Source: Myxococcota bacterium
GTDB taxonomy: Bacteria > Myxococcota_A > UBA796 > GCA-2862545
Assembly: GCA_039208735.1 (NCBI GenBank)
Contig: JBCCQY010000002.1
Coordinates: 111,429 to 175,428 of the forward strand
Length of the DNA: 64,000 nucleotides
Direction: 5' to 3'
The notes beneath the pieces are model-generated. The model was not told the DNA's origin, ran no database searches, and worked only from the letters and a program-made list of their open reading frames with translations. Shown here one piece after another: positions 42,342 through 64,000 of the stretch; position 1 is the stretch's first letter, and each line of letters opens with the position of its first letter. A program made the position numbers and the translations under genes.

Positions 42342-43416
42342 CGTCGTAATCGCGCTCACCTTGACCGCATGCGGCTCAGAACCCCAACTGGGCTTTGGGT
42401 TGGCCGTCGACCCTGTCGACGTGCTGCCCTGCGACTTTTCGCCCATCTCGGGAACCAAGTTGTCGGTCTACGATTGCAATCCCGTATTTACGTCGGTCGA
42501 TGAGCCATGGGCCAACGGGGTCATTTCAATGGCATTCCGCACCCAAGGGGTGTTGGGCGCGCCGTTGTTCCAGGTCTGGTACACGAGCGAACTCATCGGG
42601 TACGAGACCGGATGGGGGCTTGGCCACGCGGTATCGTCCGACGGCATCACCTGGACCCCTCACCCCGAAAACCCCCTTTACGGACCTACGCCGGATTGGG
42701 ACCGAGACCGGGCCAGTGCGATGACCATCGCCTACAACCAGGCCGACGACGAGTATGCGTTGACCTATCAGGGGTCGGACATCGAAAACGGCTCGCTCGG
42801 CATGGGCGTCCTGCAATCGCCAAACGGCATTCGATGGCGCGAGCCCGACAGCGGCTCGCAACTCTTCGACCTTACCGGCCAGCTCACCCCCATCTGCTGG
42901 CCGCTCGGGCTCTCTTGGACACCGAGTCAAGGCTACTTCGGGTTTCTCGCGGCTTCGGGGGCTCGACAAACCTGCGAAGCGTACCGTTTCGACGCGGAGG
43001 CGCTGTCGCCGGATGCCGTTCGGCTCGACAACCTCCCTGCGTTGCGCGCCGCGAACAACGATCGTCAATTCGATGCGCGGGGCCAAACCAGCGTGGCCAC
43101 GGTCGAGTTTGAGGGCACCTTCTACCTGTTCTACACCGGCTTCCAAGCGTGGGAGCCGACCGAGGTGGAAGGCTTCATCCGCACGTCCAACATCTCCCTT
43201 GGCGTCGCCACCTCGCTCGACGGCGTCGCATGGCGAAAGTCACGCAACGAGAACCCCTTGCCCATCGCGCTCACCGATCCCGGTGAGGTCGGGTCGGTAG
43301 GGGCCCAGGTCATCGGTGATCGCATTCACCTCTGGGTGGCCGACCAGTACCCGGAACTCGAACAGCGGGGGCTTGGCTACTTCCTTTACGAGCCCAATAT
43401 CGAGGCACATCCATGA
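42322..43416 (+). CDS. Lipoprotein with five-bladed beta-propeller (GH32/43/130-like) fold
   Basis: LTAC lipobox. Asp-box-like [33 protein letters not shown]. Confidence 0.78.
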
Positions 43417-46400
43417 TCTTCATTGGGCTGACGTCGTGGTTCGTCAACCCGGCGTCCGCCCAGGTCGTCGGAGTCATGGGCGCCGTTGTCGAGCCAGCCA
43501 CCTTGCCTACGGTTCGCGACACGCTGTTGTGCACACGCGAGTTCATCGAGGTCACCACCACCGATCTGTCGACCTCGACGCCCTCGGTCGTCGAACTCCA
43601 ACAGCATCACGCGGTGCTCGTGTTCGCCGACGCCCCGATGGCCGACCCGGTGGGCTTTGGGGATGCCTTGGCGGAGTACCTCGCGTCCGGCGGCGGGGTG
43701 GTCGTTGCGGTGGGCGCCACGTCTGCGGGCACGGGCATCGAGGGCCGCTTTGCCACCGAAGCCTGGGCCCCCCTTGAGCCTGGCCCCGTGCGGGCCCCCG
43801 GAGGCCAACTGTCGATCGCCGCCGTGCCTGAGTACGCCTGGTTGCCTGGCGTCGACGGGCACCCCACGACCCAGGGGGTCAACACCTTCTTGGGGGGCAC
43901 GGCGAGCTATCAGGTCGACGCGGAGCCGCGGGATAACACCATCACCACCGCGGAGTGGTCCAACGGGGTCCCCGCCATTGTGCTGTCGGCGCCCAGCACC
44001 ACCACAGGACGAGTGGCGACCGCGAACATCTGGCCCCCGTCCAACGTTGTCGACCTTGCATCCTGGGATGCCGCGACGGATGGCGACCGCATTCTGTCAA
44101 ACACACTGTTGTGGGCGATGCGGTACGCCAAGCCCTTTCAGACCTGCGACAACGACGTCATCGTACAAGACCTCGATTGCGACGCCATCGATGCCGCCGA
44201 CGAGTTGCCGATCGACCTCGACGACCCGCAATGCGCAAGCAACATCGATCCGGCAACGAGCGAGCCCTACCCCAACGCGGACTACTACATCGACCCCGGC
44301 AGCTTCAGCTGCACGTACCTCATCGCAGGCGCAGATCCCGACGGGGACTTGCTTGGGGGCATTGGCCAGCCCCTGGCGATTCCCAACGAGGATGGGGGCA
44401 CACTCATTGTCCAGCTCGACTGCGACAACTGCCCCTTCGACTACAATCCGCACCAGTCCGACATCGACTGCGACCGCATCGGCGACCTGTGTGACCCGTG
44501 CCCTTACGTGCCCGACAACGGCCGTGAGGACGATGGCGACTGTGTGGGCAATGCCTGTGACAACTGCCCCTTCACCCCGAACCTCGACCAGTCCGACATC
44601 GATTTCGACGACGTTGGGGATGTCTGCGACAACTGCCCCGCCGTCTTCAACCCTGACCAGGCCGACCAGGACCTCGATGGCTTCGGCGATGCGTGCGACA
44701 CGTGCCCAGAGTTCGCAAATCCCGAGCAGGAAGACCTCGACAAAGACGGGTTTTCGGGTCCCTGCGACAACTGCCCGGCCACGCCGAACCCCAAACAGTC
44801 GGACCGCGATGGCGATGGCATTGGCGATGCCTGCGACGTGTGCCCGGATCTTGTGTCCAAATTCAATCTGCCGGACACCGACGGCGATCGCTTGGGCGAC
44901 ATCTGCGACAACTGCGTGGCCATCCGCAACCCGGACCAGGCCGACCGCGATGAAGACGGTCGAGGCGATGCCTGCGACAACTGCCCCGATTGGTTCAACC
45001 TGACGATTGGGGCCGAGGTCGAGCAAGAGGACGCGGATGGTGACGGGATCGGTGACCGTTGCGACGTTTGCCCGACCCTCGCCAACCCCGAACAGGCCGA
45101 CCAGGACAACGACTTCTTCGGCGATGCCTGCGACAACTGCCCGACCGTGCCCAATCCCTTAGGCCTCGACCAAGATGAGGACGGCATCGGCGACGCATGC
45201 GATTTATGTCCGTTCTTCCAAGACAGTCGGAATAGCGACGCGGATGGGGATGGCGTTGGCGACGTGTGCGACAACTGCCCGAACTTCTTCAACCCCGAAC
45301 AGGGCAACGAGGACGGCGACAACACAGGCGATGACTGCGACAACCTGCAGTTCCGCGGGGGTGGCCAGTGCGGCGTCGTGCCCGCCGCACCAACCGGTAC
45401 GCTCGTGCTCTTCGGCCTCGTGCTCTTGGCCGCACATAGGGCGCGGAGGAGCCTTGGGGTTCTGGCCGCGTTGCTCTTCCTCGCCCTCGCCGGACCGGCG
45501 CAGGCCCAGCCCTACCGGGTGGCGCTGCTGACGGCGACGAGTCAGCCTGACCACGCGACCGACGTGCGGGATTACGTGATGTGCGCGGGTCGTGGGCTTG
45601 GAGAAGTGCTCCCTGGCAATCCACGCCAAACCTACGAAATCGAACGCATCGATATCTTTGACGTGGCGGCGGCCACCCCTACCGTAGCCGAACTCGACTC
45701 CTACGACGCCGCATTCGTGTTCAGCGATGTGACGTTCGCCGACCCTACATTGCTTGGCAATCGGCTCGCGGACTTTGTTGATCAGGACCGAGCCCTCGTG
45801 GTCGCGGGGCGGGCCCTCGACGCGACGGCGGGGCTGCAGGGCCGCGTCCTCACGCAGCTTCCCGTTACCGCTCCGGGTACCCTGGTCTTACCCGGGGGAA
45901 ACCTGGGCATCGACATTGTCGACCCGCTCGATGCGTGGACCGCGCGTCCGCCCCAGCGTGGCCACGTCGCGTTCTATGCCTACGAAGCGTTCGATGGCGG
46001 GGCCGCGAGCCTTCATGTGCAGGGCCTTTCCGCCACGTCCAACGCTCGGCTACTCGCCGCCTGGAGCAATGGGGAGCCCGCGCTGATCACGGGCGACAAC
46101 CGCGTTGCCGTGCTCAACCTCTATCCGCCCTCCGATGGCGCAGATCCAGCGTTCTGGCTCCGCAGTAGCAATGGCGACCGGCTGGTTCACGGCACCCTGC
46201 GATGGGCGCTGGGTTGGGAAATCCTGGCCCAATGCGAAAACGAGTCGTTGTCGCAGGACCTGAACTGCAACGAGATCGACGCAGCCGAGGAGATCGAGAC
46301 GGACCCGCTCAACGACGACTGCAACTTCGAAACCGCCGACTACTACTGGTCGTACTTCGGCTACGAATGCACCTTTCCGGTCGACAACTTCGACGACGAC

Positions 46401-47531
46401 AACGACGGGTTCGGGTCGGGCACCATTCCGCTGTACCTCCCGGGTAGCCCGATTCCGTGGGACATCATTGGGCTGGTCTGTGACACGTGCCCAGACGTCT
46501 ACAACCCCCATCAGCTCGACTTTGGCTGCGATGGCTTCGGCGACTTGTGCGACGCCTGTCCCTTCGACGAAGCCCTCGTTCCCAACAACAACCGCGATGG
46601 GGACGGCGACTGCTTTGGCGATGCCTGCGACAACTGCCCCGAGGTCCCGAATCCCGACCAGTACGACGACGATGAAGACTGGTTTGGCGAGGCGTGTGAC
46701 AACTGCCCAGGGCTTTTCAACCCCCCCGACTTCATCGGGAACCGCTGGGTTCAAGCCGACCTCGACCAAGACGGGGCCGGTGACGCTTGCGACAACTGCC
46801 TGATTGAACCCAATCCCGACCAGCTCGACAACGACGGCGACGGGCTCGGCAACGCCTGCGACAACTGCCCCGACGTACCTTCGCTCGACCAAGAAGACGA
46901 CGATGCCGACGGGGTCGGCAACCCTTGCGACAACTGCCCCGAGGTGGCGAGCCTCGACAACGGGGACCCCGACGAAGATGGCTTGGGCAACCCTTGCGAC
47001 AACTGCAGGTTCGTCGCCAACCCTGGTCAGATCGACACGGACAAGGACGGCGTCGGCGACGCGTGCGACATTTGCATCGACATCGCCAACGAGGGCCAAG
47101 CGGACCGCGATGCCGATGGCGTAGGCGATGGCTGCGACAATTGCCGCGACGACGCCAACGAAACCCAGCTCGACACTGACGAAGACGGGGTCGGCGATGC
47201 GTGCGACAACTGCCCCCTCACCCCGAACTTCGACCAAGACGACCTAGATGCGGACGGCCTGGGCAACGCCTGCGACAACTGCCTGCTCGGCCGGGATGCG
47301 GCGGCGGTGGATTCCGATGGCGACGGCGTAGGCGACGTCTGCGACAACTGCCTCGATGTGCCCAACGCCGATCAGATCGATGACGACGGCGACGGCCTCG
47401 GCGATGCCTGCGACCGCGAGGTCTTTCGGGGTGGCGGGCGACTCGTCGCCTGCGGCACCACCCCCCTCACCGTCGGTTGGCTGGGCTGGCTAGTGGCGTT
47501 GGGTCTCGCCTGGCGTCGCAAACCCGTGTGA
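43413..47531 (+). CDS. Thrombospondin type-3 repeat surface protein with two tandem units and MYXO-CTERM-like tails
   Basis: Many [15 protein letters not shown] repeats, two homologous globular domains, and RGGG..C-TM-RR segments both internally and at the C-terminus. Confidence 0.9.
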
Positions 47532-51083: not shown

Positions 51084-52403
51084 ATGAGCGACACTGCGTC
51101 CCAGACCCTCACCCGCATCGGTAGTGTGATTGCGGTGTCGGCTGCGCTGTTTAGCATCCCGGCTTTCATCTTTGGCTTTTGGGTGACCGGGGGCATGGCG
51201 CTCATCTTTCCCTTTGCCTACTTCGGCCTCGTCGTCTACGGGCGTCACCCTGGGCGCAGCTTGCTGGCGACCAACCTGTTTGGTGCCGTCGCGATGGCCC
51301 AGATTTTGCTTGCCGTTTCGATGACCGGCGGGCCGGCGAGCATCGCCACGCAGTCCATCGTGCTGATTCCCGTCCTCACCACCCTCATCAGCGGCCCTCG
51401 CTACGGGTGGATCTGGCTTACGATCACGATGATCTTCCTTGGGGTCATGAACCTTTCTGAATCGTTGTGGCTTGGCGACCTCGCTTCCATGCCCGTGATG
51501 ACCCGGGGATGGCTGGTGATTGGGATGATGCTGGTGACCTGTGGGGCGATACAGGCCGGGCTGTCCTCGTTCGCCGGCCAGCGGAACTTGGCGCTGGAAG
51601 AGCGAGACATCGCCCTCGCAAGCTTGGAGAAGCGTGTCGAGGCCCGTACCATCGAGCTGAAACTCGAGGTCGAGCAACGCCGCATCGCGGAAGCCCGGGC
51701 CGCCCAGGCCAACCATGCAAAAACCGCCTTTTTGATGAACATGAGCCACGAGCTTCGAACTCCGCTCAACGCAATCCGCGGCTACGCGGAGCTGTTGGGC
51801 GAAGAGCTCGAGGACCTCGAAGTGCCCACCGCCACCTACATGCGAGACCTCACCCAAATCACGGGTGCATCAAGGCATTTGCTTGGGCTTATCGACAACA
51901 TCCTCGAGTATGCGCGCATCGAGGAAGGCCAAATCGAGGCCGCGCTCGAAACGATCGACCTCGGCAAACTGCTCCACGACATGGCGCACATGATTCGACC
52001 GGTGATTCAGACGCGATCCAACACCATGCGCCTCGAGGTCCTCGCGCCCGACGAAGGACCACTCCTTGCGTTTGGCGACGCAGGATGGATTCGCCAGATC
52101 GTGATCAATCTCGTTTCAAACGCAAACAAGCTGTCGAACGAATCGACGATCACCGTTCGGGCCTCTGCCGAGGGGAACGTGGCCATGATCGCGGTGGAAG
52201 ATGAGGGGCCAGGCATCGAGCCCGCCCTCATTCCACGGCTCTTCGAGCGTTTCACACGCGGCACCGAAAGCATTGGCACGTCGGGAACCGGATTGGGACT
52301 CGCGATCAGCCACGACCTCGCCACCCGCATGAACGGGACCCTCTCGGTCCAATCCACCCTGGGTCAGGGTACCACCTTCGTACTCACCATCCCGATTGCG
52401 TAA
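51084..52403 (+). CDS. Membrane sensor histidine kinase
   Basis: TM region, FLMNMSHELRTPLNAI, NLVSNA, DEGPGI, GTGLGL. AAGGAG RBS. Confidence 0.92.
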   Translation: MSDTASQTLTRIGSVIAVSAALFSIPAFIFGFWVTGGMALIFPFAYFGLVVYGRHPGRSLLATNLFGAVAMAQILLAVSMTGGPASIATQSIVLIPVLTTLISGPRYGWIWLTITMIFLGVMNLSESLWLGDLASMPVMTRGWLVIGMMLVTCGAIQAGLSSFAGQRNLALEERDIALASLEKRVEARTIELKLEVEQRRIAEARAAQANHAKTAFLMNMSHELRTPLNAIRGYAELLGEELEDLEVPTATYMRDLTQITGASRHLLGLIDNILEYARIEEGQIEAALETIDLGKLLHDMAHMIRPVIQTRSNTMRLEVLAPDEGPLLAFGDAGWIRQIVINLVSNANKLSNESTITVRASAEGNVAMIAVEDEGPGIEPALIPRLFERFTRGTESIGTSGTGLGLAISHDLATRMNGTLSVQSTLGQGTTFVLTIPIA

Positions 52404-52863
52404 AGCGAACGACCCGAACGAACCGCTCGGAATCGGAGGGCCACGCTTCGAGGGTGTCGCAAATCAAACGGGCGGCGCTGGGTTCATCGAAACGCCCGGA
52501 ACCCGCGCCAATCACCGGCATCGCAATCCGCGAAAATCCGTGGTCCCGGGCGACTAGTACGGCATTCTGTACAGAATCCACAATCGACCGTTCGCTGGCC
52601 CGCCACAGCAAATCGATCCCCGCAACGTGGATAATGCCACGAAAGGGGAGGTTTCCCGCTGAGGTCACGCGAGCCTGGCCCAGAGGCAGCATTCGCCTTC
52701 CAAGCTCGCGAAACGGGGCGGTGCCACCACGCCGTTTGATGGCCCCCGAAACGCCCTGCGGAAGCAGCAACCACCAGGGAATGAGGTTGCGATTCCAAGC
52801 GTTGACGATGGCGTCCACGTCGGTCTGGTCGAGCAGATCTCCCCACACCACTTCGAATTGCAT
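52384..52863 (-). CDS. Macro domain protein
   Basis: GDLL..VDAIVNAWN, GVSGAI, GQARVTSAGNL, IIHVAG, IAMPVIGAG. Confidence 0.9.
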   Translation of the reverse strand: MQFEVVWGDLLDQTDVDAIVNAWNRNLIPWWLLLPQGVSGAIKRRGGTAPFRELGRRMLPLGQARVTSAGNLPFRGIIHVAGIDLLWRASERSIVDSVQNAVLVARDHGFSRIAMPVIGAGSGRFDEPSAARLICDTLEAWPSDSERFVRVVRFTQSGW

Positions 52864-52866
52864 GCG

Positions 52867-53634
52867 TCACACGATGACCGTGGTTGTAGCCACGGCTTCC
52901 GGACTCCGAAAGGGGAGCCGAGACGGAGTAAATGGATTGCGTCTCAGAATCAGCGTACCCATTGCGCCAGCATCGGCCGCCCGCACCAGCCGGGTTGCCC
53001 CGACCAGCTGAATCTGGCATTCCTCGAGGTCGAGCCAGGTGAGATCCCCAAACCAGGAGGCCTCCACCAGGTAGCCGACTCCTGCATCCTCGATGGGGTT
53101 GCCCGACAAGTCGAGCCACCACACACCTGCGAGGGCCTCACACTCCGCCATCGCCGCCACTTCGTAGGGTGTCAGCCGCTGCCCGCTCAACGCCAGTCGG
53201 GTAAAGCGAAACATCTTCGCGTGCTGCAGCCAGCTGTGCACGCCGACCGGCCCCCGTGGAGCCAGGGTTCGTTCGTCGAACAACACCGCCGGATGTCCGT
53301 CCAGGCCCTCGACAAAGTCACGCGTAGCCGGTTCGATGGCGGTCACCCGGGTCGACACGACGAAGCCATCTTGCCAGTCGAGTCGCACGCCTTCGACCGA
53401 TCCCACCGTGGCCGCGAATGCCACGGTGATTTCGGCTTCCCGTTCGAGCACGAGTTCGCGAAGCTCCCAACTGTTGGTGGCCGTGAGGGGCTCCGTGGCC
53501 AATCGATGCCGTAGACGGACGAGTTCGCCCCGTTCGTCGTTGTGCTCGGTCAGCCAATCGGCAAGGACAAGCCACGCCGACCAGTCTCGAGGACGAACGC
53601 GCAGTTGGGCGACAAGCCGGGGGTCGAGCGACAC
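52867..53634 (-). CDS. TIGR02996 domain + LRR-like protein
   Basis: WLVLADWLTEHNDERGELVRL, WQDGFV, LDLSGNPIEDAG, LTWLDLEECQI. Confidence 0.82.
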   Translation of the reverse strand: MSLDPRLVAQLRVRPRDWSAWLVLADWLTEHNDERGELVRLRHRLATEPLTATNSWELRELVLEREAEITVAFAATVGSVEGVRLDWQDGFVVSTRVTAIEPATRDFVEGLDGHPAVLFDERTLAPRGPVGVHSWLQHAKMFRFTRLALSGQRLTPYEVAAMAECEALAGVWWLDLSGNPIEDAGVGYLVEASWFGDLTWLDLEECQIQLVGATRLVRAADAGAMGTLILRRNPFTPSRLPFRSPEAVATTTVIV

Positions 53635-53642
53635 ACGATGGC

Positions 53643-56540
53643 CTATCCCGCAAGCCCCAAGCGCGTACAGGCTTCGCGGATCGACATGACTTCGCGGCGC
53701 CGATCCACGTCGTCTCCCTTGAGTTTGGCGAGAAGCGGCACCGCGAGCTGCGCGGCGTCGGGGACCCACTCAGCCACCAACGCCAACCCTTGAAGCCCGA
53801 CGGCCTCGCGTTGGTCTTTGACCAAACTCGCTTGCTCCGCACAGTCCCGCGCGAGCGATGCGTCCTCGACAAACGCCGCCCGAAAGCAGTTCAACAAGAG
53901 GCGGACGAGACTCTTGTGGTTGGGGGCTGGCAATCCGATCCGCTGAAGTAACGCCATCCCGACATCGGGCATCGGGTACCGCCAGGCGACGGCACACTCC
54001 ACGCACAAAATCAGTTCAAGCACCGCTGGAATACCAAGTAAATCCACGGCATCGATGAGTTCAGCATCCGGAGTCAAGGGACGACCTTCGCGATAGGCAA
54101 TGTTGCGGAGCAAGAATTCAGCTCGAGCTTCCCATCGGGCCAACCGGAACGCACTCGCTTCCTCGAAGAGCGCCCGAGCCGCCGAGGCCGCGTGCCGCAA
54201 CTGCCCGCGCTCGAGCAAGGCGACCCCAATGTTGAACAAGCCCGAGACCCGCACCACCGGGTCGGAGGACCGCGTTCGAGGCTCATGCCACCGGATGGCT
54301 TCTTGGTAGTCGCGCTCTCGCAACGCGGCGACCCCACGCCAGCCCCGCACGTGATCGCGCAGCACGGCCGAGGGCGACCCTTCGTAGCGCTCGCATAGCT
54401 GGCGGATTTGTGTCTTAAGGTTCTTGACGCTTTCAGCTTGGATCACCGCAACCCACCGCCCCAGTGGCGTTTCGTCGGGGGCGCGAATTGGCTCGAGCAT
54501 CTGCCAGGCGCGCTCTCGTGAGGTCGGCAGGACCTCACAGGCCCGAAGGAGGTCGAGCCAGGGACGAATTTGCGCATGGTGGTCGTGGGCGCCCAGCGTC
54601 CGCAGTGCGCGGTTCAACGGATCGGCGGTTCGCAACGTGACCGCGACCTCAGCCAGCGCGGTCAACACGATGGTTTGGTCGTCTCCCTCCACCGACCGAC
54701 TCAGCGTCTCGAAAAGGCCGAGCGCCCGATCCAGCTCACCATTGGCCTCCGCCCATCGAACCCCTTCGGCACACTCCCTCGCCGCGGTAGTGGACCGACC
54801 ACCCAACATGAGGTGCTGGATGCGCGGCAACGCACCTCGGGGGTGTGTGCCGGCCAAGGCGGCGTGGCGCACTTCACGAGCCTCGGGAGCCAGACGTTCG
54901 AGTACCTGCGACGGAACGCGCGGCACCATGCGCCCATCGTCCAGAGCGATGCAGCGGAGGTCCCCAAGCGCCTCGAGCATAGCCTCGAGTTCCCAGGGCG
55001 AGAGGTCCGAAACCTGCTGGAGTCGAGCCCGGGTGGCCCGCGGTTGCGACAGCCAGATCCACGCCAGCAAATCATCGAGATCCGCATCGAGCGTCTTGAG
55101 AGGCAGCCCGATGGAGGCGGGCACAAAGGCGGATTCCAAGGCGTCGAGTTGCGTCGTTTCCATGACGATGCGCTGGCCTTCTCTTCGCCCAAAGCCAAGC
55201 TGAATCCATTGGTTCAATTCATCGACGACGTGACTGGCCAAGCCCTGAGTCCGTCGGTGAAGCAACTGCGAAGCCCTGGTGCGAACTCGGAAGATGCGTT
55301 CGTGGCCGTCGAACAATTCGTACAGTGCCGCAACGCTCAACGGTCCCAGCTCAACATCACCCGGGCCCCGGCCATCGACCCGCACCACAAGAGGAAACGC
55401 GCTCAGGAGCCCACGACTCCAGCGATCCATGCGCTCCATCCGATCGACAAACACGATGTCGTCAAACCGCGACAGTCGTTCTTCAAACCAAGCCCGCGCC
55501 TCGGCGAGCGTTTCGACGGCGGGCTCCCCCAAGAACGCCACCAAACTTCCAAACGGTCGATTTGACGGTTGAGCCCAGACCACGTCTGCGTCCATGGAGG
55601 CTTCGAGTGCCTGCAAAAACCGCGTCGCCCCCGCACCACGTGGCGAAACGATGTGAAGGGGCCGCCGTTGCTCCAAGAGCGCACGTGCCTGCGCTAGCTC
55701 CACATCGCGGTCGAGCAAGGGTAGACCAAGCCCCGGATCGGGAGACCGCAGCACCGAAAGGACGTGCAGCGCAGACTCCGCGCGGACATCGATCTCCAGT
55801 CGGAGCATGGATTCGATGACCCATGCGACTTCACCGGGCACCGCAGGCCGACCGAGTTCCTCCAATCGAGGCAACAGCCGTGGTGCCTCAAGTGTCCGAA
55901 GAACGCCGTTGGGATAGGGGTATTCCCCGGTCAACGCCAACCATGCCATCACCCCGATGGCGAAAAGGTCGGACCGCGCGTCAACCTGGGCTCCAAGGTG
56001 TTGTTCGGGAGCCATGAATCCAGGGGTTCCGGGAGCCACCCCCGGGCGCGTGACCCGAGGCAGGTTCTCGCCACGGGCGATTCCGAAGTCCAGCACCATC
56101 GCGTGGCCCTCGGGAAGGACCAAGACGTTCGCCGGCTTGAGGTCACGGTGGATGATGCCCGCGTTGTGGACCTTCGCCATCGTGCTCAACAAATCAACCA
56201 AACGGGGCTCGAGCCACTCCCAGTCGACCGGCCCCTCTGCGCCGGGGAACGGAACTCCCACAACGAGATCCATCACGAGGAAGGGACCATCTTCGTCTTC
56301 GCCCTGGTCACGCAGCCGCACCACTCGTGGCAAGACCAGGTTGCGAAGGGCCAGCGCCTCCCGGGCGACGCGACGCCGTACATCCGGGTCTCCACCCTGG
56401 AGGCGCTTAAACGCGACCCAGCGAGCATCGATGCCGTCCCACGCGCGCCAGACGCGGCTCGATCCGCCATGTCCGAGGACGTCGTGGAGCGAGTACCGCC
56501 CAACCACGAGCGGACGCTCCTCGGGTGACCGGGCGTCCAT
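53643..56540 (-). CDS. Ser/Thr protein kinase + degenerate STAND-like NTPase + TPR-like region
   Basis: LGHGGSS, VAFK, HRDLKPAN, LDFG, GTPGFMAPE. Then LLDRDVEL...SPRGAGATR (Walker A lacking Lys), TQGLA and helical repeats. Confidence 0.9.
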   Translation of the reverse strand: MDARSPEERPLVVGRYSLHDVLGHGGSSRVWRAWDGIDARWVAFKRLQGGDPDVRRRVAREALALRNLVLPRVVRLRDQGEDEDGPFLVMDLVVGVPFPGAEGPVDWEWLEPRLVDLLSTMAKVHNAGIIHRDLKPANVLVLPEGHAMVLDFGIARGENLPRVTRPGVAPGTPGFMAPEQHLGAQVDARSDLFAIGVMAWLALTGEYPYPNGVLRTLEAPRLLPRLEELGRPAVPGEVAWVIESMLRLEIDVRAESALHVLSVLRSPDPGLGLPLLDRDVELAQARALLEQRRPLHIVSPRGAGATRFLQALEASMDADVVWAQPSNRPFGSLVAFLGEPAVETLAEARAWFEERLSRFDDIVFVDRMERMDRWSRGLLSAFPLVVRVDGRGPGDVELGPLSVAALYELFDGHERIFRVRTRASQLLHRRTQGLASHVVDELNQWIQLGFGRREGQRIVMETTQLDALESAFVPASIGLPLKTLDADLDDLLAWIWLSQPRATRARLQQVSDLSPWELEAMLEALGDLRCIALDDGRMVPRVPSQVLERLAPEAREVRHAALAGTHPRGALPRIQHLMLGGRSTTAARECAEGVRWAEANGELDRALGLFETLSRSVEGDDQTIVLTALAEVAVTLRTADPLNRALRTLGAHDHHAQIRPWLDLLRACEVLPTSRERAWQMLEPIRAPDETPLGRWVAVIQAESVKNLKTQIRQLCERYEGSPSAVLRDHVRGWRGVAALRERDYQEAIRWHEPRTRSSDPVVRVSGLFNIGVALLERGQLRHAASAARALFEEASAFRLARWEARAEFLLRNIAYREGRPLTPDAELIDAVDLLGIPAVLELILCVECAVAWRYPMPDVGMALLQRIGLPAPNHKSLVRLLLNCFRAAFVEDASLARDCAEQASLVKDQREAVGLQGLALVAEWVPDAAQLAVPLLAKLKGDDVDRRREVMSIREACTRLGLAG

Positions 56541-56890
56541 CAGACGTTGTGGGTCGTGCCGAAGTCGAGGTGCTCCACGAGCAAATCGTAGTAGTCGACC
56601 TTGACGACCGACTTTCCATTTGCCAACTGCTGAAGCTGGGCTGGCTTCGCGCACCAAGCTTTGAAGGCCGCGTAGTCGGCGTGGTTCGCACTCGCATCGA
56701 TGTGCTTGAAGACCCGGGACGCCGGCGTGCTACCCGGCCCATGGAGCTTGACACCGTGGTGCAAGCACCAGTACTCGTGGCCATTGCGGGAATAGTGGGC
56801 CCATCCGAGTAATCCACCGCCCGAGTCGCGGACTTCCATCGTTCCTTCTATGATCTGGACCGCATCAGGCCCTGTCGGCTCGTCGCTCAT
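56540..56890 (-). CDS. Small hypothetical protein (116 aa)
   Basis: GGAGGA RBS. Its TGA overlaps the kinase ATG (TGATG). Confidence 0.75.
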   Translation of the reverse strand: MSDEPTGPDAVQIIEGTMEVRDSGGGLLGWAHYSRNGHEYWCLHHGVKLHGPGSTPASRVFKHIDASANHADYAAFKAWCAKPAQLQQLANGKSVVKVDYYDLLVEHLDFGTTHNV

Positions 56891-56986
56891 TTGTCCTCCG
56901 CTCCTACCATAGGTCGACGCGAACAACCCTCCAAATTCACGGCGTTCACGCTGCGTGACTCTGGGCCCCGGGGGGGCGACTTCGAG

Positions 56987-57002
56987 GCAGGCGGATTGCC
57001 AA
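56987..57002 (-). promoter_or_regulatory. Putative sigma54 (-24/-12) promoter
   Basis: Minus-strand TTGGCAATCCGCCTGC, GG-N10-GC spacing, about 100 nt upstream of 56890 and just downstream of the activator gene. Confidence 0.6.
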
Positions 57003-57165
57003 CGAAGACAAATCCCCGAGTCTGCCGAACTCGTTCAACGCGCAGCGGCCGAGAGCGTCCCATGCTCACCTCCATGCCAACGCAAGAGCAAGGAGCGGGC
57101 CAAGGATTCTAGACGCTGGAACGCTAAGAATGGTGGAGGCGTGTCGTGAAAACACGACGGTTCGT

Positions 57166-58608
57166 CTACGAGCTGTCGTCAGAATCCGACACCCGCGGGA
57201 GCAGGTCGTAGAGCGTGGACCGATGGATGCCGAGTGTCTTCGCAGCCTCGGCATAGCGGCCGCCGCACCGAGCGAGGACCATCGCCGCAAACCGACGACG
57301 GAATGCATCGGTTTGCCGCCCGAGATGAAGGTCGTCGTCGTACTCCACGCCCTCGAAGTGCGTGACGCCGATGGCTCCCGCTCGGGCATCCCCCGCGTTG
57401 AGCAACGCCCAGCGCAGGACGTCTTCGAGCGAACGAATGTTGCCGTCGTCCCAACCTCGCTGCTCGAGCCACGCGTAGGCGGCAGGGGTCAAAGGAAGGC
57501 CCGGTGTGCCCTGCTCCATCGCCAACTGGCAGACGATGTGGGTGGCCAGCTCTGGAATGTCGTCGAGACGGCTCGCCAATGAGGGAATCGCAATCGGCAG
57601 CCGCCGGAGTCGGTTGCGAAGCTCGGGCAACATCACATCAGGGTTGTCGAGGTCGAGCGCCGACGCCGCGATGATGCGAACGTTCGCCGCTTGCTCATCG
57701 CCTGACGGCATGCGTCGGTATTTGCCGTCATCGAGGAACGTCAGCAACTGGGGCTGTACGTTCATGGGTAGATAGCCGACCTCGTCGAGAAAGAGGGTCC
57801 CCCCTTCGGCATCTCGAATCAGTCCTCGAATCGGGCCTCGCATGCCCGTGTAGGCACCTGCGTCCGCCCCAAACAGCTCAAATTGACGGGCATCGCCGAG
57901 CATGGTGGCGCAGTTGAGTCGAACGAAGGGCTTGTCGCGCCGCGCGCTGTTGCGATGAATGGCTTCGGCCAATTTGCTCTTTCCCGTGCCCGATGGCCCG
58001 GTGAGCAGCACGGGCAACTCCAATGGAGCGTATTGGGCGACCTTACGCAGGACGTTCGCTAACGCCGGGCTTCGCCCCACAATGCCATTCAATTCCAGCT
58101 TTTCACGGTAGACCAACGTGGCGTCCTGGTCCCACCGGGCGCGCCAACGCAGTTGGTCGCACAGCGGACGGAACCGATCCACCGCAATCTCCATGAGATG
58201 CCGGTCCTCAGCCCCCCACATGCGCCGACTTTCACGACCTTGAACATAGACAATGGCATTGGGCATCGCTGCGCACATCACCTGTTCGATGCTCTTCGCT
58301 TCAAGGCTCGCGCTGTCGAAGCGAGGGTCCTCCATGGCGTTGTCCGTCACCAGAAGTTCCCCCGGCCGCGCCGCCTTTACGATGGTCTGGCTCACCCGCT
58401 CGCGCAGCGCCGGAAGCTCGGCACCATGGGTTGCGTGCCAAATGGGGTTTGTCAGCGGCGAAGGCCCGACCGCAAGCAGGCCAAGGCGTGCATCGAGCGC
58501 CTTCACCACGAGCTGCAGCGCCTGCTCTAAGAACTCCTGTGCCTTCACGTCTTCCATGTCGAGCCTGGCGAGCGACCGGTAGAGCGCGAGTTCAGCGTCC
58601 ATCGTCAT
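57166..58608 (-). CDS. Sigma54-dependent enhancer-binding protein (GAF-AAA-Fis HTH)
   Basis: GAF (NAMEDPRF), GPSGTGKS, ELFG...GAYTGM, TLFLDEV, GNIRSL, AAKTLGIHRSTLY. Confidence 0.92.
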   Translation of the reverse strand: MTMDAELALYRSLARLDMEDVKAQEFLEQALQLVVKALDARLGLLAVGPSPLTNPIWHATHGAELPALRERVSQTIVKAARPGELLVTDNAMEDPRFDSASLEAKSIEQVMCAAMPNAIVYVQGRESRRMWGAEDRHLMEIAVDRFRPLCDQLRWRARWDQDATLVYREKLELNGIVGRSPALANVLRKVAQYAPLELPVLLTGPSGTGKSKLAEAIHRNSARRDKPFVRLNCATMLGDARQFELFGADAGAYTGMRGPIRGLIRDAEGGTLFLDEVGYLPMNVQPQLLTFLDDGKYRRMPSGDEQAANVRIIAASALDLDNPDVMLPELRNRLRRLPIAIPSLASRLDDIPELATHIVCQLAMEQGTPGLPLTPAAYAWLEQRGWDDGNIRSLEDVLRWALLNAGDARAGAIGVTHFEGVEYDDDLHLGRQTDAFRRRFAAMVLARCGGRYAEAAKTLGIHRSTLYDLLPRVSDSDDSS

Positions 58609-59419
58609 CGTGCATCCTCGGGAAGAGACCGGTGACCAACGTCACCACCGTGTCGGCCGATCCACTGCGAAACGGAACGAGGGCAGCTTGTTGGGCTTCC
58701 TGCAGCGCCTCCATGAGTCGAGGCAGCGCCTCGCGAGACACCCCCACGGTCAGGGTGGTGACCATGCGTTCCTCGGGGCCGAAGGTTTCGATGGCCGACG
58801 CGGCGTGTCGAAGGGCGTCGTGGTGATGGCGACGAGCCGCTTCTGCGAGCGTGGGCTCCGACATCTCGGAGGCGTGCCCCCAAGGTCCGGAACGGTCCGA
58901 TCGTGGGCCCGGACCATCTGCGACCACACCCGCTTCCACCGTGTCGGCCATGGCCTGGGCGACGGCCTCGGCCGAAGTGCGCGGCCACAACACCTGGGCC
59001 AACGCATCTGGATCCGAGGGTGGGTCGTCGAGGTCTTGCATTGCGATGAGGGTTCCGTGCAGCCAAGAACCGAGGATGCCAGCCTGATCGGGGGTGGACT
59101 GAGACAGATTGCGAAAGTCCCGGACCGCGTAGATGTGCGCACGAGCCGCCTGGCGAATGGCCAAACTCGGGCCGTGGGCCAGCCGGACCAAGGCCTCGAA
59201 GAACGACACTTCCTCGCCCTCAAGGCCCAACTCTCGCGCCACCGTACTCGCCTTGGCAAGGGCCAATTCGCGTTGACCCGATAAGATCATCGACATGTTG
59301 GACCGCGTCATCTCAGTCCGACGGGCAAGCGCGGCCTGAGAGCGATTCTCGCGCTCGTCGATCCAGGCCTGCACAAAGGCCCGATAGTCGTCAAAGTCGT
59401 AGACACTCGGCACGGTCAC
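58592..59419 (-). CDS. TIGR02147 family protein (HTH + DUF4423-like)
   Basis: PSVYDFDDYRAFV, HTH ...MSMILSGQR, LGLEGEEVSFFEALV, ERMVTTLTV, LFP C-terminus. Confidence 0.8.
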   Translation of the reverse strand: MTVPSVYDFDDYRAFVQAWIDERENRSQAALARRTEMTRSNMSMILSGQRELALAKASTVARELGLEGEEVSFFEALVRLAHGPSLAIRQAARAHIYAVRDFRNLSQSTPDQAGILGSWLHGTLIAMQDLDDPPSDPDALAQVLWPRTSAEAVAQAMADTVEAGVVADGPGPRSDRSGPWGHASEMSEPTLAEAARRHHHDALRHAASAIETFGPEERMVTTLTVGVSREALPRLMEALQEAQQAALVPFRSGSADTVVTLVTGLFPRMHDDDGR

Positions 59420-60501
59420 GCCTCCTTTGCTGCCGCCTCGAGCGCACCCCGCGCATCGACTCGGAGATAGGTCTGGTGGGTCGCGGGCACTGAAGGCGCC
59501 TCATCGTCGCCATCGAAAATCTCCTTTGCCCCTGCGCGAAGCCAGGTTTTCAACTGGTCGACGGTCGGCCGGGCGCCGGACTTGCGCCGCAGGTACTCTT
59601 GCAGCAGCAACACCACACCAGCTACCACGGGTGCCGCCTGACTGGTGCCATCCATCGAAGCGGTCGCGCGCGGATCGCCGATCCCCGTCGACGTGACCCG
59701 AGCGGCGGGAGCCAGAAGGGTGGTGAAGTGTTCGCCTCCGGTGGAGGAATGCAAGCGCTGGGAGAAACTGGCGACGCGGTCGGGCCCCGTCGTTCGGGTG
59801 ATGGTTCCCTCTTCCCAATGCACGGTGCGCCCGATGTCGTCGTCGTAGACCGCCCCCACGCTGATGGAACGGCGAATGATCGCGGGAAACGCCATTCCCT
59901 GCTCGCGAAAGGTTCCGTAGCGATTGCCGGTTGAGATGCACACCGGAATATCGCATGCGTAGAGGTGGTGAATCAGATCTGTAATCCCAGATTGATCCCC
60001 AGCTTCCTCTTCACTCCGATAGTTTCCGTCATCGGCGAGCGACATGCACACTGCGGTGATGCCAAAGGACTCGTGGCGCTCAACGACCCACTCGAGCGCA
60101 CGTCGAATCGGCCCAAACGTGTCGAGCTGACCTGGGCAGAGCACGCGAAGCGAGACGATTTCGGCATCGGGAGCAATGCCTTGATTCACCCCGTTCGCAG
60201 CAATGATCCCAGCCACATGAGACCCATGACCGGTCTCGTCCCAAGGTGAACCGGCCTCCGTGAAATCGACGGCGGCCCGAATTCGTCGTTGTCCTTGGGG
60301 AGTCAAGAAGTCGTAGTGTCCAGACATGATTCCCGAATCCAAGACCGCGACCGTCTGGCCCTGCCCAGAGACCTCGAAGGTCTTGCGCGCCTCGTGGCTG
60401 TGAACCAGCGCTCGAACCTGCTTCAAGCCATGTTCTTGGGCCGTCCGCACCACACGTTCGACGCGTCCTCGAAACGCGACCTCGGTATTTTCGTCAATCA
60501 T
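59416..60501 (-). CDS. S8 serine peptidase without signal peptide
   Basis: VAVLDSG / GHGSHVAG / DGTSQAAP, ISTGN, charged N-terminus. Confidence 0.92.
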   Translation of the reverse strand: MIDENTEVAFRGRVERVVRTAQEHGLKQVRALVHSHEARKTFEVSGQGQTVAVLDSGIMSGHYDFLTPQGQRRIRAAVDFTEAGSPWDETGHGSHVAGIIAANGVNQGIAPDAEIVSLRVLCPGQLDTFGPIRRALEWVVERHESFGITAVCMSLADDGNYRSEEEAGDQSGITDLIHHLYACDIPVCISTGNRYGTFREQGMAFPAIIRRSISVGAVYDDDIGRTVHWEEGTITRTTGPDRVASFSQRLHSSTGGEHFTTLLAPAARVTSTGIGDPRATASMDGTSQAAPVVAGVVLLLQEYLRRKSGARPTVDQLKTWLRAGAKEIFDGDDEAPSVPATHQTYLRVDARGALEAAAKEA

Positions 60502-60571
60502 GGCCAAATCCTAGCTGTCTGAACTGCGAATTTCCGAACGCCACGTTCACGGTTGGTGGATCCCGGGCCCA

Positions 60572-61342
60572 TCAGGGTCGTCGTAGGTCAAACCGAAAGA
60601 GAGGAGGGCCATAGACGTCACGCGCACTCTCTCGATCCGTATCGGTAAACTCCAGGTTGTGGCTGCCCACCCCGCCACAAAAGTAGTGCATGATCGACTG
60701 CGGATCGTAGTCGGTCAAGTTGATGGTGTGGTCCAAACTCTCGTCTTCGCAGGCGGCGGGGGCCCCACTGCGGATGTGCTCATGACGGAAACCCAAGACG
60801 TGGCCCATTTCATGACGTAGGACCCCGACGGGCTCAAAGAGCAACCCCGGCGTAAAGAATCCATCGAAAAGAGCCACGAACCGCCGAGGGCGTTCGTAGT
60901 AGGGAAAGAACGCCGTGGCAATGGTGTTGCTGCCTCCCATCACCCGTCGAACCACGAATACGGCGTCGTTGGGTCTCACCGTGTCGGCCGTGTCGAGTTC
61001 GGCAAGGTGAGCAAACTCGCAACCGCAGATGGACATCCAGTCCTGAGTGGCTTCCTTCATGGCCACCACGGCCTGTTGATAATCCGCCTCTGACTCACCG
61101 AAGGACGCCCGACGAACGGAATAGGTCAACCGAACCCCGGGTGCCCAACGCACGGTTCCTTCACCAAAGTCCATGGCCACGAGGCCTTCGCGAGGGTCGG
61201 GGGGACCTTCCGCCCACTCCCGGAGTTGGGCTTCATCGAGCAGGTAGTCGCCCTCCGCAATCCAGAAGGCCTGGCCATCGACCTCGACCTGAACCTTCCT
61301 TCGCTTCATGTCTTCAAATTCGCTTTCGGTCAGCCTTGGCAC
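60572..61342 (-). CDS. Matrixin-like metzincin metallopeptidase without signal peptide
   Basis: HEMGHVLGFRH and Met-turn YDPQSIMHY. GTG at 61342 follows GGAGG. Confidence 0.9.
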   Translation of the reverse strand: MPRLTESEFEDMKRRKVQVEVDGQAFWIAEGDYLLDEAQLREWAEGPPDPREGLVAMDFGEGTVRWAPGVRLTYSVRRASFGESEADYQQAVVAMKEATQDWMSICGCEFAHLAELDTADTVRPNDAVFVVRRVMGGSNTIATAFFPYYERPRRFVALFDGFFTPGLLFEPVGVLRHEMGHVLGFRHEHIRSGAPAACEDESLDHTINLTDYDPQSIMHYFCGGVGSHNLEFTDTDRESARDVYGPPLFRFDLRRP

Positions 61343-61364
61343 GTGCCCTCCGAGGAACCAGCCC

Positions 61365-62624
61365 TCACGAAAAGAAGTCGAGCGGCGATAGATCCACCGT
61401 TGGAGGGTCATCGCTGCCGTCTCCGCCATCCCGTCCGCCACTGCCGCCGGAGCGGCTCGAATCGTTGCGCAATCGCTGATTCTCCTGCAGCGCCTTTAGG
61501 TTGTGCGTGACGCCCTCGAACTCCCAACCTTCGGGATCATCGATACGAGCCGAACCTGCCGCGGCTACGCTGGCGAGCAACGACCCCCGCCAGTCGTGAA
61601 ACACGGGGGTCCGCCCGGTATAGACCTCGCGCCACTGCTCCACAAGCCTGGATGGCGGGCGAACGAGCCCATCGTCGAGCCGGGACCCTTCCCAATTCCA
61701 CTCCAGGAGGCGGTTCGCCACCCGATCGGCCTGCTCGATCAGCGGCTTCATTGCGTCTGCAGACGGATAGGCCTCGCGCCATCGCTCCCAGGTCGGAGTC
61801 GCTTCGCCAGCTGCGGCTTGGCAAAGCGCCATTCGCACGGTTCGTGGTGGATAGGGACTCTGCGCTTCGGGTGCCTCATTGCGAATCGCCTCGGGCACAT
61901 CGGCAAGTTCGCAAGAAAGGGTCGCTGCGTAGCCATCCCCCAGGGTGGCCGCGGCAAACACATCGGCAAAACTCTCGCTGACCCACGCCGACCATGCAGG
62001 GTCGACGCCATCGGGAAGCAGGGCCTGAAGTTGGTCTGCGCCCCCCCGGGAGGCCACCAGGACGTGGGCGGCTTCGTGCACGACGAGCGCCAAGTCGGCC
62101 ACCGAACCCCTTAGTGACCATGGAACCCCGATCAATGGGACCGGAAGTTGGCTCAGCACCTCACGGAACGCCGCACCATGGCGCTCTCGCACCCCACTTA
62201 CCGAAAAGCTCCGGGTCATGGCGAAGGGCGCATGATCGGGGCTCAGATGAACCAGTGGAGGCACCGGTGCGGCCCGAGGATGAGGTTCCAGCACGATCCA
62301 CGCCAAATCATCTGCCGCGACCAACCAAATCTGATCCGTCTCGACTTCGCGCTGGTGCCAACGCCGGGTGAAATACGTCCAGACCGCACTGGCACGGTGG
62401 TACTGCCGGCGTCTTCGAGCGGCCTGCACAATCGGCGGGCCTTGCGGAGCTTGTTCGTCGAGCGTCTGCAGGAGCCAGTGCAGGCTCCCCGACACGGCTT
62501 TGATCTGGCTCTGGTGAGGCCTATAGGGAGGGTCACTCGCTCGCTTGACCCAGTCTTGGAGATCGCGAAGCAACCGTTCCCGCACGCGGCCGGCAACCAA
62601 CTCTGTGACGCGATGCAAGCTCAT
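61365..62624 (-). CDS. Putative gluzincin-type (HExxH...E) peptidase-like protein
   Basis: VVHEAAH followed by WVSESFAD and YPP..VR. AAGGAG RBS, no signal peptide. Confidence 0.72.
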   Translation of the reverse strand: MSLHRVTELVAGRVRERLLRDLQDWVKRASDPPYRPHQSQIKAVSGSLHWLLQTLDEQAPQGPPIVQAARRRRQYHRASAVWTYFTRRWHQREVETDQIWLVAADDLAWIVLEPHPRAAPVPPLVHLSPDHAPFAMTRSFSVSGVRERHGAAFREVLSQLPVPLIGVPWSLRGSVADLALVVHEAAHVLVASRGGADQLQALLPDGVDPAWSAWVSESFADVFAAATLGDGYAATLSCELADVPEAIRNEAPEAQSPYPPRTVRMALCQAAAGEATPTWERWREAYPSADAMKPLIEQADRVANRLLEWNWEGSRLDDGLVRPPSRLVEQWREVYTGRTPVFHDWRGSLLASVAAAGSARIDDPEGWEFEGVTHNLKALQENQRLRNDSSRSGGSGGRDGGDGSDDPPTVDLSPLDFFS

Positions 62625-63901: not shown

Positions 63902-64000
63902 GCCGGCGATACCTACTCTCCCACAGGGTTCCCCCTGCAGTACCATCGGCGCACTAGGGCTTAACTTCCGAGTTCGGAATGGGATCGGGTGGGACCCCCG
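63902..64000 (-). rRNA. rrf: 5S rRNA (5' end beyond window)
   Basis: Reverse complement of conserved 5S segments: CCTACTCTCCC, CAGTACCATCGGCG, CTTAAC, GAGTTCGGAATGGGATCGGGTG. Confidence 0.96.

Follow-up and report, generated by a model that had tools for sequence, protein, structure and literature searches.

Gene content of the locus

Nine co-directional genes, here called g1 to g9, lie on the minus strand of a 64,000-nt stretch of contig JBCCQY010000002.1 from the Myxococcota bacterium assembly GCA_039208735.1; this whole stretch is termed the window, and coordinates are positions within it. The host genome (G000) comprises 9.4 Mb at 64% GC and is 92.7% complete; its counts of kinase, sigma54-activator and TIGR02147 genes suggest a myxobacterium-like organism. 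An original prediction, made from the sequence alone, had read the nine genes as one two-tier circuit, in which proteolysis and a sigma54 activator switch on a kinase and ADP-ribose block. The comparisons below point instead to what is very probably a mosaic of two modules, A and B. The nine-gene arrangement matters less than that prediction held, and the lead that emerges is a widespread, apparently unnamed system of CHAT-STAND proteins and two zinc peptidases (zincins), the latter represented here by g1 and g2. The genes and other open reading frames (ORFs) and features of the locus are:

61365–62624, minus strand: g1 (family G1), 419 aa, unnamed gluzincin-like metallopeptidase; module A core
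60572–61342, minus strand: g2 (family G2), 256 aa, signal-less metzincin with HExxHxxGxxH and a Met-turn; module A core
59416–60501, minus strand: g3, S8 subtilase (Pfam E 5.8e-30) without a signal peptide; variable module A partner
58592–59419, minus strand: g4, TIGR02147 protein (helix-turn-helix (HTH) and DUF4423; 81.7 bits against a cut-off of 50); module B
57166–58608, minus strand: g5, GAF-like/AAA+/HTH sigma54 activator; module B
57087–57102, minus strand: sigma54 −24/−12-like promoter, 102 nt before the GNP motif
56887–57063, minus strand: 58-codon ORF with a Shine-Dalgarno sequence and a GNP signature, with a 4-nt overlap between its stop and the start of g6
56540–56890, minus strand: g6, 116-aa orphan
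53643–56540, minus strand: g7, Ser/Thr kinase with a STAND-like domain and helical repeats; module B associate
52867–53634, minus strand: g8, TIGR02996 domain (35.6 against a cut-off of 29.05) and weak leucine-rich repeats
52384–52863, minus strand: g9, stand-alone macrodomain (Pfam E 5.7e-19), with 2 copies in the host

This arrangement is real. All nine ORFs were recovered as predicted and, given these start codons, the gaps (22, 70, 275, 8 and 3 nt) and overlaps (4, 17 and 1 nt) agree with those first described. A contig from run X1, possibly the source sample, covers 52525–60453 with zero differences, and contigs from another study (X2, ~97–99% alike) bridge the g1/g2, g2/g3, g3/g4, g4/g5 and g7/g8 junctions; among the matches listed, no independent piece bridges the whole g5/g6 gap. 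The count of nine requires a correction, as an EamA gene upstream of g1 (63776–62787) shares the orientation of g1–g9. The 275-nt gap has the expected length and promoter-like motif but is not empty, since it holds the 58-codon ORF.

Pfam and NCBIfam profiles bore out the assignments to S8, TIGR02147, Sigma54_activat, Pkinase, TIGR02996 and Macro. The matrixin call for g2 stands as regards its metzincin motif and fold, but M10 and astacin profile matches were below cut-off, and g1 and g6 had no profile above cut-off in the family scans. As had been proposed, signal-like N-termini appear to be lacking: by hydropathy, a hydrophobic N-terminal stretch was present in none of the nine proteins, and their sole 19-residue window above 2.0 lies inside g7 (residue 834). 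GC and GC3 showed no break that would signal transfer (GC3 of 0.69–0.76 against a genome median of 0.75), and scans of the locus for sigma70 promoters and terminators returned chance levels only. At the level of PADLOC models, the locus matches no named defence system: only generic kinase, subtilase, AAA and HTH models matched, scattered over unrelated systems, and none matched g1, g2, g6, g8 or g9.

Comparative evidence for a mosaic

Gene neighbourhoods were compared in three sets: the 80 best among 548 genome loci with a G2 relative (from Chloroflexota, Acidobacteriota, Actinomycetota, Myxococcota, Verrucomicrobiota, Pseudomonadota, Cyanobacteriota, Bacteroidota, Planctomycetota and others), 20 loci encoding orthologues of the g5 activator and 20 encoding homologues of the g7 kinase. 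The nine-gene set was not found elsewhere. When proteins were queried singly, g3, g4, g5, g6, g8 and g9 were each found in 0/80 G2 loci and a kinase in 7/80, while G1, G2 and S8 were found in 0/20 activator-orthologue and 0/20 kinase-homologue loci. This neighbourhood test largely refutes a single conserved system, and the link from proteolysis to the activator is left without comparative support (0/80, 0/20 and 0/20 loci). The boundary between the two blocks, previously placed at the 275-nt gap, is moved to g3/g4, where the evolutionary seam lies. Together, these data make it very probable that the locus is a mosaic of module A (g1–g3) and module B.

G1 and G2 in a multi-peptidase module

The g1 protein contains HExxH at residues 183–187, a third ligand at E217 and YPxR at 258, and thus has the HExxH and downstream Glu of gluzincins. 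Among the top representatives of the G1 family, HExxH was present in 148/148 and the downstream Glu ligand in 144/148, and none of the 148 had a hydrophobic N-terminus. In an exhaustive search the family numbered 992 representatives (50% identity) at E ≤ 0.001, a count that fell to 671 at E ≤ 1e-10; that word-index searches returned only G1 itself and one locus protein was thus a sensitivity artefact. In the Atlas, G1 falls into unnamed clusters at 0.97, the nearest named families being U49 and M48 (0.77–0.78). The AlphaFold 2 model (predicted local distance difference test score 85.8) comprises an N-terminal three-helix bundle, a core and a C-terminal helical domain. Superposition of the core on neprilysin gave a weak match (Z 6.6, root-mean-square deviation 4.4, 170 aligned), and matches to neprilysin, PepO, Zmp1, BepA and thermolysin (Z 5.4–6.6) were all beneath the reliable range; an M48 peptidase was also among the fold matches. 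There was no Foldseek match at E ≤ 0.001 and no solved structure was found by sequence search, which does not imply a new fold. Strong matches reaching the N-terminal region occurred in 4/401 genomes of the phylum. The bulk of the 50/401 phylum matches were proteins of ~540 aa that share the catalytic core alone, in a housekeeping-like context, and these were not counted as G1. By eye, the conserved neighbours of this core-only family (L096:6497-8161, L097:6244-7863, L098, L100) resemble NfeD/flotillin-like (FloA) genes and a helicase; the one member scanned had no Pfam match.

HExxHxxGxxH and the Met-turn, the signature of metzincins, were both present in 82/82 G2 ORFs of the examined loci. 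The predicted G2 fold resembles myroilysin, matrix metalloproteinases and karilysin (Foldseek E 5e-8 to myroilysin, 290 matches at E ≤ 0.001), and 1247 homologues were found among 7999 scored candidates. Preceding the catalytic domain is an N-terminal domain of ~45 residues, in which an EGD motif is invariant (55/55 aligned), as is D32; the domain is likely a propeptide. It is also encoded by itself, as a stand-alone ORF in 34/80 loci (an automatic count with a few possible miscalls), including small pro-domain-like genes directly upstream of G2 (L016:9589-9894, L038:9623-9967, L051:9432-9818 and others). These genes are candidate trans-acting inhibitors. No stand-alone pro-domain was found in the host genome. 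The pair C198/C222 is retained in 54/55 sequences, and the second G2 copy of the host, on contig C8, lacks both. A hydrophobic N-terminus was seen in 2/120 G2 proteins. The distribution of G2 is patchy (2/154 genomes of the order). In a G2 tree from a quick search, g2 lies near CHAT-STAND-type loci on a long branch (unstarred support 93), a placement not relied on here; the C8 copy also sits on a long branch.

Caspase-like and STAND genes recur among the neighbours of these two peptidases. G1 was present in 32/80 G2 loci, CHAT in 27/80 and both in 25/80, and G1 directly adjoined G2 in 17/80. When G2 was collapsed at 70% identity, the 52 resulting clusters divided into 16 with both, 5 with G1 only, 2 with CHAT only and 29 with neither (Fisher p 2e-7); at 62% identity (35 clusters) the G1–CHAT link persisted (p 4e-4), kin in both sets being still not fully independent. 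Pfam agreed on CHAT in the members scanned. Three layouts recurred: CHAT-STAND followed by a ~1700-aa STAND protein with tetratricopeptide repeats (STAND-TPR), G1 and G2; G1 followed by two CHAT genes, a pro-domain gene and G2; and G2 followed by G1, a G1 paralogue without HExxH, and a TPR gene. Most of the loci with G1 and CHAT had one of the first two, the second also being seen as G1, CHAT, CHAT and G2. The CHAT-STAND proteins retain His-Gly, Cys and Walker A motifs. In the STAND-TPR partner, GGxGK is invariant, TPR-like repeats are present, and the end resembles CHAT but lacks the dyad motifs. Neither Pfam nor NCBIfam assigns it to a family above cut-off, and a peptidoglycan-binding domain is found in some copies. 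The long partner genes are found at:

L014:2510-7738, L085:3930-8474, L154:7181-11968 and others: ~1700-aa STAND-TPR protein
L013:10838-16591, L015, L020, L081: variant operon of the third layout, with a long TPR protein

Eighteen metagenome loci anchored on G1 were also analysed, mostly short contigs retrieved with a query favouring one subfamily, after a weak 19th fragment had been dropped. A STAND-TPR gene was present in 11/18, CHAT in 7/18 and G2 in 2/18. Plasmids of Sinorhizobium and Bradyrhizobium carry the same operons; arrangements on annotated plasmids are CHAT followed by an ATP-binding gene and G1; G1 followed by two CHAT genes with a divergent S8; and G2 followed by S8 and a serine protease. 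G1 also occurs with CHAT, STAND and DUF7379 in genome G013 and, in genome G107 (L094:6824-13800), as a phosphoesterase-G1 fusion followed by TIR-SLOG and then an S8 subtilase. In genome G038 (L095), four clustered G1-like genes lie beside TIR-SLOG and a histidine kinase. At L041:8915-14801, L044 and L156, G2 without G1 is found between an amidase gene and an unnamed ~640-aa gene. After the latter comes either trypsin-NucA or an S8 gene with a serine protease gene, an arrangement that touches System 3 of Kaur et al. Taken together, these comparisons support the view that G1 and G2 belong to a conserved multi-peptidase module, apparently without a name, that is associated with caspase-like and STAND genes.

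The third gene of the module is variable. In g3 the catalytic triad (D55/H92/S287) is intact, and an S8 gene directly follows G2 also in L028 and in the plasmid locus L156. Close relatives of g3 are rare, with 2 others in 401 genomes, on short loci that by eye carry no sign of module A. The host has a second G1–G2 pair (G000:C8:36792-44786, equivalent to L001:793-8787), located behind a C14 caspase ORF, a hydrolase-like ORF and a ceramidase gene. The alpha/beta-hydrolase-like ORF of this C8 locus is probably frameshifted, and the locus also has a divergent TIGR02996-like gene.

A regulatory module and a probably inherited sigma54 promoter

Module B is best read as a myxobacterial regulator made up of a TIGR02147 protein, a sigma54 activator and a kinase. 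TIGR02147 genes were nearby in 8/20 loci encoding g5 orthologues and kinase genes in 11/20. Genome G016 has the order kinase-STAND, TIGR02147, activator, promoter and GNP, with identities of 33% to g7, 35% to g4 and 40% to g5, and genome G001 has kinase followed by activator. GAF matches were obtained for the g5 orthologues L145 and L150. Homologues of g7 occur in 60/151 genomes of the order. The kinase catalytic motifs of g7 are intact; its STAND P-loop is degenerate, with Ala for Lys, and so has neither the Walker A Lys nor the family Arg expected of an active STAND protein, the Arg being found in the GxxGSGR(T/S)-like loops of 12 homologues. A −24/−12 promoter motif lies near g5, and the genome contains rpoN, an RpoN box being located on host contig C116. 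Activators of the g5 subfamily mostly have non-canonical loops, and orthologues with the variant still adjoin a sigma54 motif.

A small, unnamed protein with a GNP motif and a hydrophobic N-terminus adjoins the activator in 9/23 loci scanned, and 4/6 of the GNP relatives in the host abut TIGR02147 genes. Members of this family are ~145 aa, secreted-looking and beta-rich, with two conserved Cys, and include:

L187:6806-7246, L188:1868-2341, L196:8253-8684 and L197:5138-5572: GNP family proteins of relatives
Host contigs C37, C34, C7 and C160: GNP family proteins of the host

The GNP gene of L188 is followed by a contig-end ORF (L188:2342-3007) that matched a local caspase profile and is putative.

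In the window, the place of the GNP gene is taken by the 58-codon ORF in the 275-nt gap. In a three-frame translation it matched the GNP-family hidden Markov model (HMM; E 0.0015 over three frames), and its frameshift-aware GNP score exceeded those of 150/150 shuffles and 248/250 random genome stretches; no signal-like segment was found in it. The ORF is therefore likely a decayed remnant of the small secreted GNP protein that is the usual target of module B. The sigma54 pattern, which was written after the site had been seen, has one match in the window against 0.12 expected, and 11/100 shuffles also reach one. A TGG-N9-TGC motif was found 101–144 nt before GNP in 7/8 evaluable relatives, against a background of 0.045 per 100 nt. 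Because the same motif at a conserved spacing lies beside this activator subfamily in relatives, the window motif, as judged by this homology, is inherited from module B and homologous to the relatives' promoter. Since the gap holds both this promoter at conserved spacing and a GNP remnant coupled to g6, g6–g9 have likely inherited the activator's promoter. The proposal that the activator controls the second block is thus plausible as far as the promoter is concerned, homologous in 7/8 relatives, but sits less well with the non-canonical loop of g5.

A proposed protease cascade and competing explanations

We propose a cascade whose cleavages, zymogen state, trigger, defence role and transcription we infer from what was observed, namely gene content, motifs, predicted folds, co-occurrence counts and promoter position. 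CHAT-STAND and STAND-TPR, the latter with an apparently inactive CHAT end, would sense a trigger and oligomerise; the caspase-like protease would then cut the EGD propeptide, an aspartate switch, off G2 and possibly release G1 from its helical bundle. The activated zinc proteases would cleave cell proteins, leading to growth arrest or death, and the stand-alone propeptide may set a threshold in trans. In the window the CHAT-STAND tier is missing and the subtilase g3 could serve as the activating protease, a role that the C14 caspase could fill at the C8 locus. In module B, the kinase and the TIGR02147 protein would tune the activator, which would fire the adjacent sigma54 promoter; as its GNP target has apparently decayed in the window, read-through would reach the orphan, kinase, leucine-rich-repeat and macrodomain genes. 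If the mosaic is granted, the placement of module A as the downstream tier of such a cascade, set off by a sensor within a conflict or cell-death system, is reasonably likely. For the reading as a whole, in which a mobile G1–G2 pair with this role has been spliced to module B in this lineage, we judge the balance to be slightly favourable. A fuller version is possible but decidedly tentative: that CHAT-STAND, STAND-TPR-pseudoCHAT, G1 and G2 constitute an undescribed bacterial immune pathway resembling an apoptosome. Its executioners would be two zinc proteases, activated by a caspase and until then restrained by an aspartate-switch propeptide, of which a separately encoded copy would act as a free inhibitor. 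The activating protease would be interchangeable (CHAT, C14 caspase or subtilase), and in this myxobacterium operon fusion and promoter capture would recently have connected the cascade to a sigma54/kinase/macrodomain output.

Several observations weigh against this interpretation. The pairing of G1 and G2 is not obligate, with G1 absent from 48/80 G2 loci and G2 present in only 2/18 G1-anchored loci (many of these 18 end near the gene). The HMMs for CHAT and partner genes were derived from the same loci, so that detection is favoured there, and with Z under 8 the structural placement of G1 is weak. By a broader S8 profile, S8 occurs in only 2/80 G2 loci. The covariation of C198 and C222 suggests a disulfide, which would be odd in a cytoplasmic enzyme. 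In the host, the STAND-TPR partner was not found in a genome that is 92.7% complete, and none of the 12 CHAT ORFs lies beside G1–G2, because of which the window copy of module A may be a relic. As for the seam, there is no break in GC at g3/g4, and the tight overlap hints at a single transcript across it. Finally, the g5 loop reads GAYTGM in place of the canonical GAFTGA, which is found in 10 other host ORFs.

Other neighbours of G2, namely amidase, M28, astacin, hemocyanin-like and RTX-repeat proteins, likewise count against a cytoplasmic cascade, in that they fit an extracellular or lysis-released role. On this alternative, module A would be a hydrolase cluster for predation, scavenging or matrix turnover, with G2 a disulfide-bearing metzincin exported without a Sec signal. 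The closest folds to G2 are indeed those of secreted enzymes (myroilysin, serralysin, karilysin), the Cys pair is conserved, and ceramidase, phospholipase D and M4 genes join the amidase, M28 and astacin genes among the neighbours. The strongest partners, however, are cytoplasmic sensors, namely the CHAT-STAND and STAND-TPR proteins with their Walker motifs; signal-like N-termini are nearly absent from G1 and G2; no recurring secretion genes were seen among the annotated neighbours in the subset scanned; and G1 also occurs with TIR-SLOG. We therefore regard a secreted cluster as unlikely.

The two-tier circuit as first proposed is improbable. It could be rescued as recent, lineage-restricted wiring, in which a module A transcript carries g4 and g5. 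The coupling at the seam is tight (4-nt overlap of g3/g4, 17 nt of g4/g5), the junctions are bridged in an independent strain, the promoter sits at the homologous place with the remnant ORF coupled to g6, and a kinase gene comes right after G2 in Sorangium and in one other Polyangiaceae locus. Against this stand the zero cross-module co-occurrence in the 80, 20 and 20 loci and the abundance of such genes in the host, which encodes 153 kinase ORFs, 30 sigma54 activators (10 of them within 3 kb of a kinase in any case), 15 TIGR02147 proteins and 11–17 TIGR02996 proteins; moreover, neither g8 nor g9 is recurrently linked to module A or B. Least probable is that the stretch is a junk-drawer island of decaying A and B fragments with no joint or remaining function: the decayed GNP target, the lost CHAT-STAND tier, a g7 P-loop more degenerate than its family's, the long branches of both G2 copies and the probable frameshift in the C8 hydrolase-like gene would fit decay, but each of the nine reading frames is open and the catalytic residues are preserved, 12/13 strain differences in g7 are synonymous among the differences listed (40 of 325 rows), and an independent strain shares the arrangement.

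Relation to known systems

Module A, in the cascade reading, resembles the conflict systems of multicellular bacteria that Kaur et al. 2020 (PMC7159879) describe as peptidase cascades, and shares with them multi-protease operons, STAND partners, proposed proteolytic activation and a patchy distribution in multicellular phyla. These systems include a NucA-trypsin-S8 System 3 and an alpha/beta-hydrolase-CASPASE pairing. The likeness to System 3 extends to the G2 locus L041, which adjoins a trypsin-NucA gene. The difference lies in the core, which in module A consists of two zincins with CHAT-STAND and STAND-TPR, not of NucA and trypsin; by Pfam, NucA, trypsin, EAD, MoxR and vWA were absent from the window genes. 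The accessible portions of PMC7159879, PMC8195603 and a 2026 ParA preprint contain no description of a G1–G2 pair. The CATRA caspase/TPR ternary system is named in PMC8195603. Its components, reportedly described by Burroughs and Aravind in 2020, are also alike in that a caspase-like protease joins a TPR protein in a conflict operon of three or four genes, whereas the core zincins are not known to be part of CATRA. CATRA-N, CATRA-C and CATASP had no Pfam match on window genes or scanned neighbours, in a profile library that may not include these models. The best-known substrates of bacterial caspase-like proteases are pore-formers and sigma-factor inhibitors.

A propeptide Asp serves as the latency device of astacin and fragilysin, according to 10.1101/2020.07.07.192476. 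G2 is like these aspartate-switch zymogens in its metzincin fold and in the invariant Asp of an N-terminal segment before the catalytic domain, and differs in having no signal peptide and in that the pro-domain is also a separate gene. By analogy, G2 may use an aspartate switch. The propeptide motif of astacin resembles EGD. For G1, the likeness to Lit (Peptidase U49) and M48 gluzincins consists of HExxH, a downstream ExxAD and (Y/H)PxxxxR, with Atlas values at lead level only; G1 departs from them by two extra helical parts, a bundle at the N-terminus and a domain at the C-terminus, and matches no Pfam family above cut-off. Lit is an abortive-infection protease.

Sigma54 enhancer-binding proteins of myxobacteria occur beside Ser/Thr kinases, and g5 is similar in being a GAF-AAA-HTH protein next to a kinase, as in 10/30 host activators. 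The g5 subfamily differs in its variant loops and in its association with TIGR02147 and with a small, unnamed secreted protein whose gene follows a conserved sigma54 motif. No paper on TIGR02147 was found in the literature search, and full-text searches, whose coverage stopped short of supplements and most subscription journals, found no description of the module A gene set; the novelty of the CHAT-STAND/double-zincin system is accordingly provisional.

If correct, the model would add a caspase-to-zincin relay to the known bacterial cascades of death and immunity and assign a function to the large unnamed G1 family (671 representatives at 50% identity). Intact operons are present in harmless cultured hosts (Arthrobacter sp. 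Leaf337 (L085), Sorangium and a Sinorhizobium terangae plasmid), which makes the model directly testable. The module of TIGR02147, activator, sigma54 promoter and GNP would give TIGR02147 a functional context, and the window itself would show promoter capture in progress.

Genes 6, 8 and 9 and other features of the window

Among 151 genomes of the order, g6 was found in G000 only, with no Atlas match at 0.9 or above and no profile match to the GNP family. That g6 is a diverged GNP protein was considered and rejected, as the hhalign probability was 0.2% and adding g6 left the frameshift score unraised. The g8 gene belongs to a paralogous expansion of the 11–17 host copies. Like g8, g9 lacks a recurring association with module A or B, and it was found in 0/80 G2, 0/20 kinase and 0/20 activator loci.

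At 43413–47531 on the plus strand, the window encodes a 1372-aa protein, possibly two fused genes, with what we take to be numerous Asp/Cys repeats of the thrombospondin type 3-like kind and, in its interior, a MYXO-CTERM-like segment. At ~63910–64000, very high contig depth and rRNA-like loose ends suggest a multi-copy RNA gene or repeat nearby.

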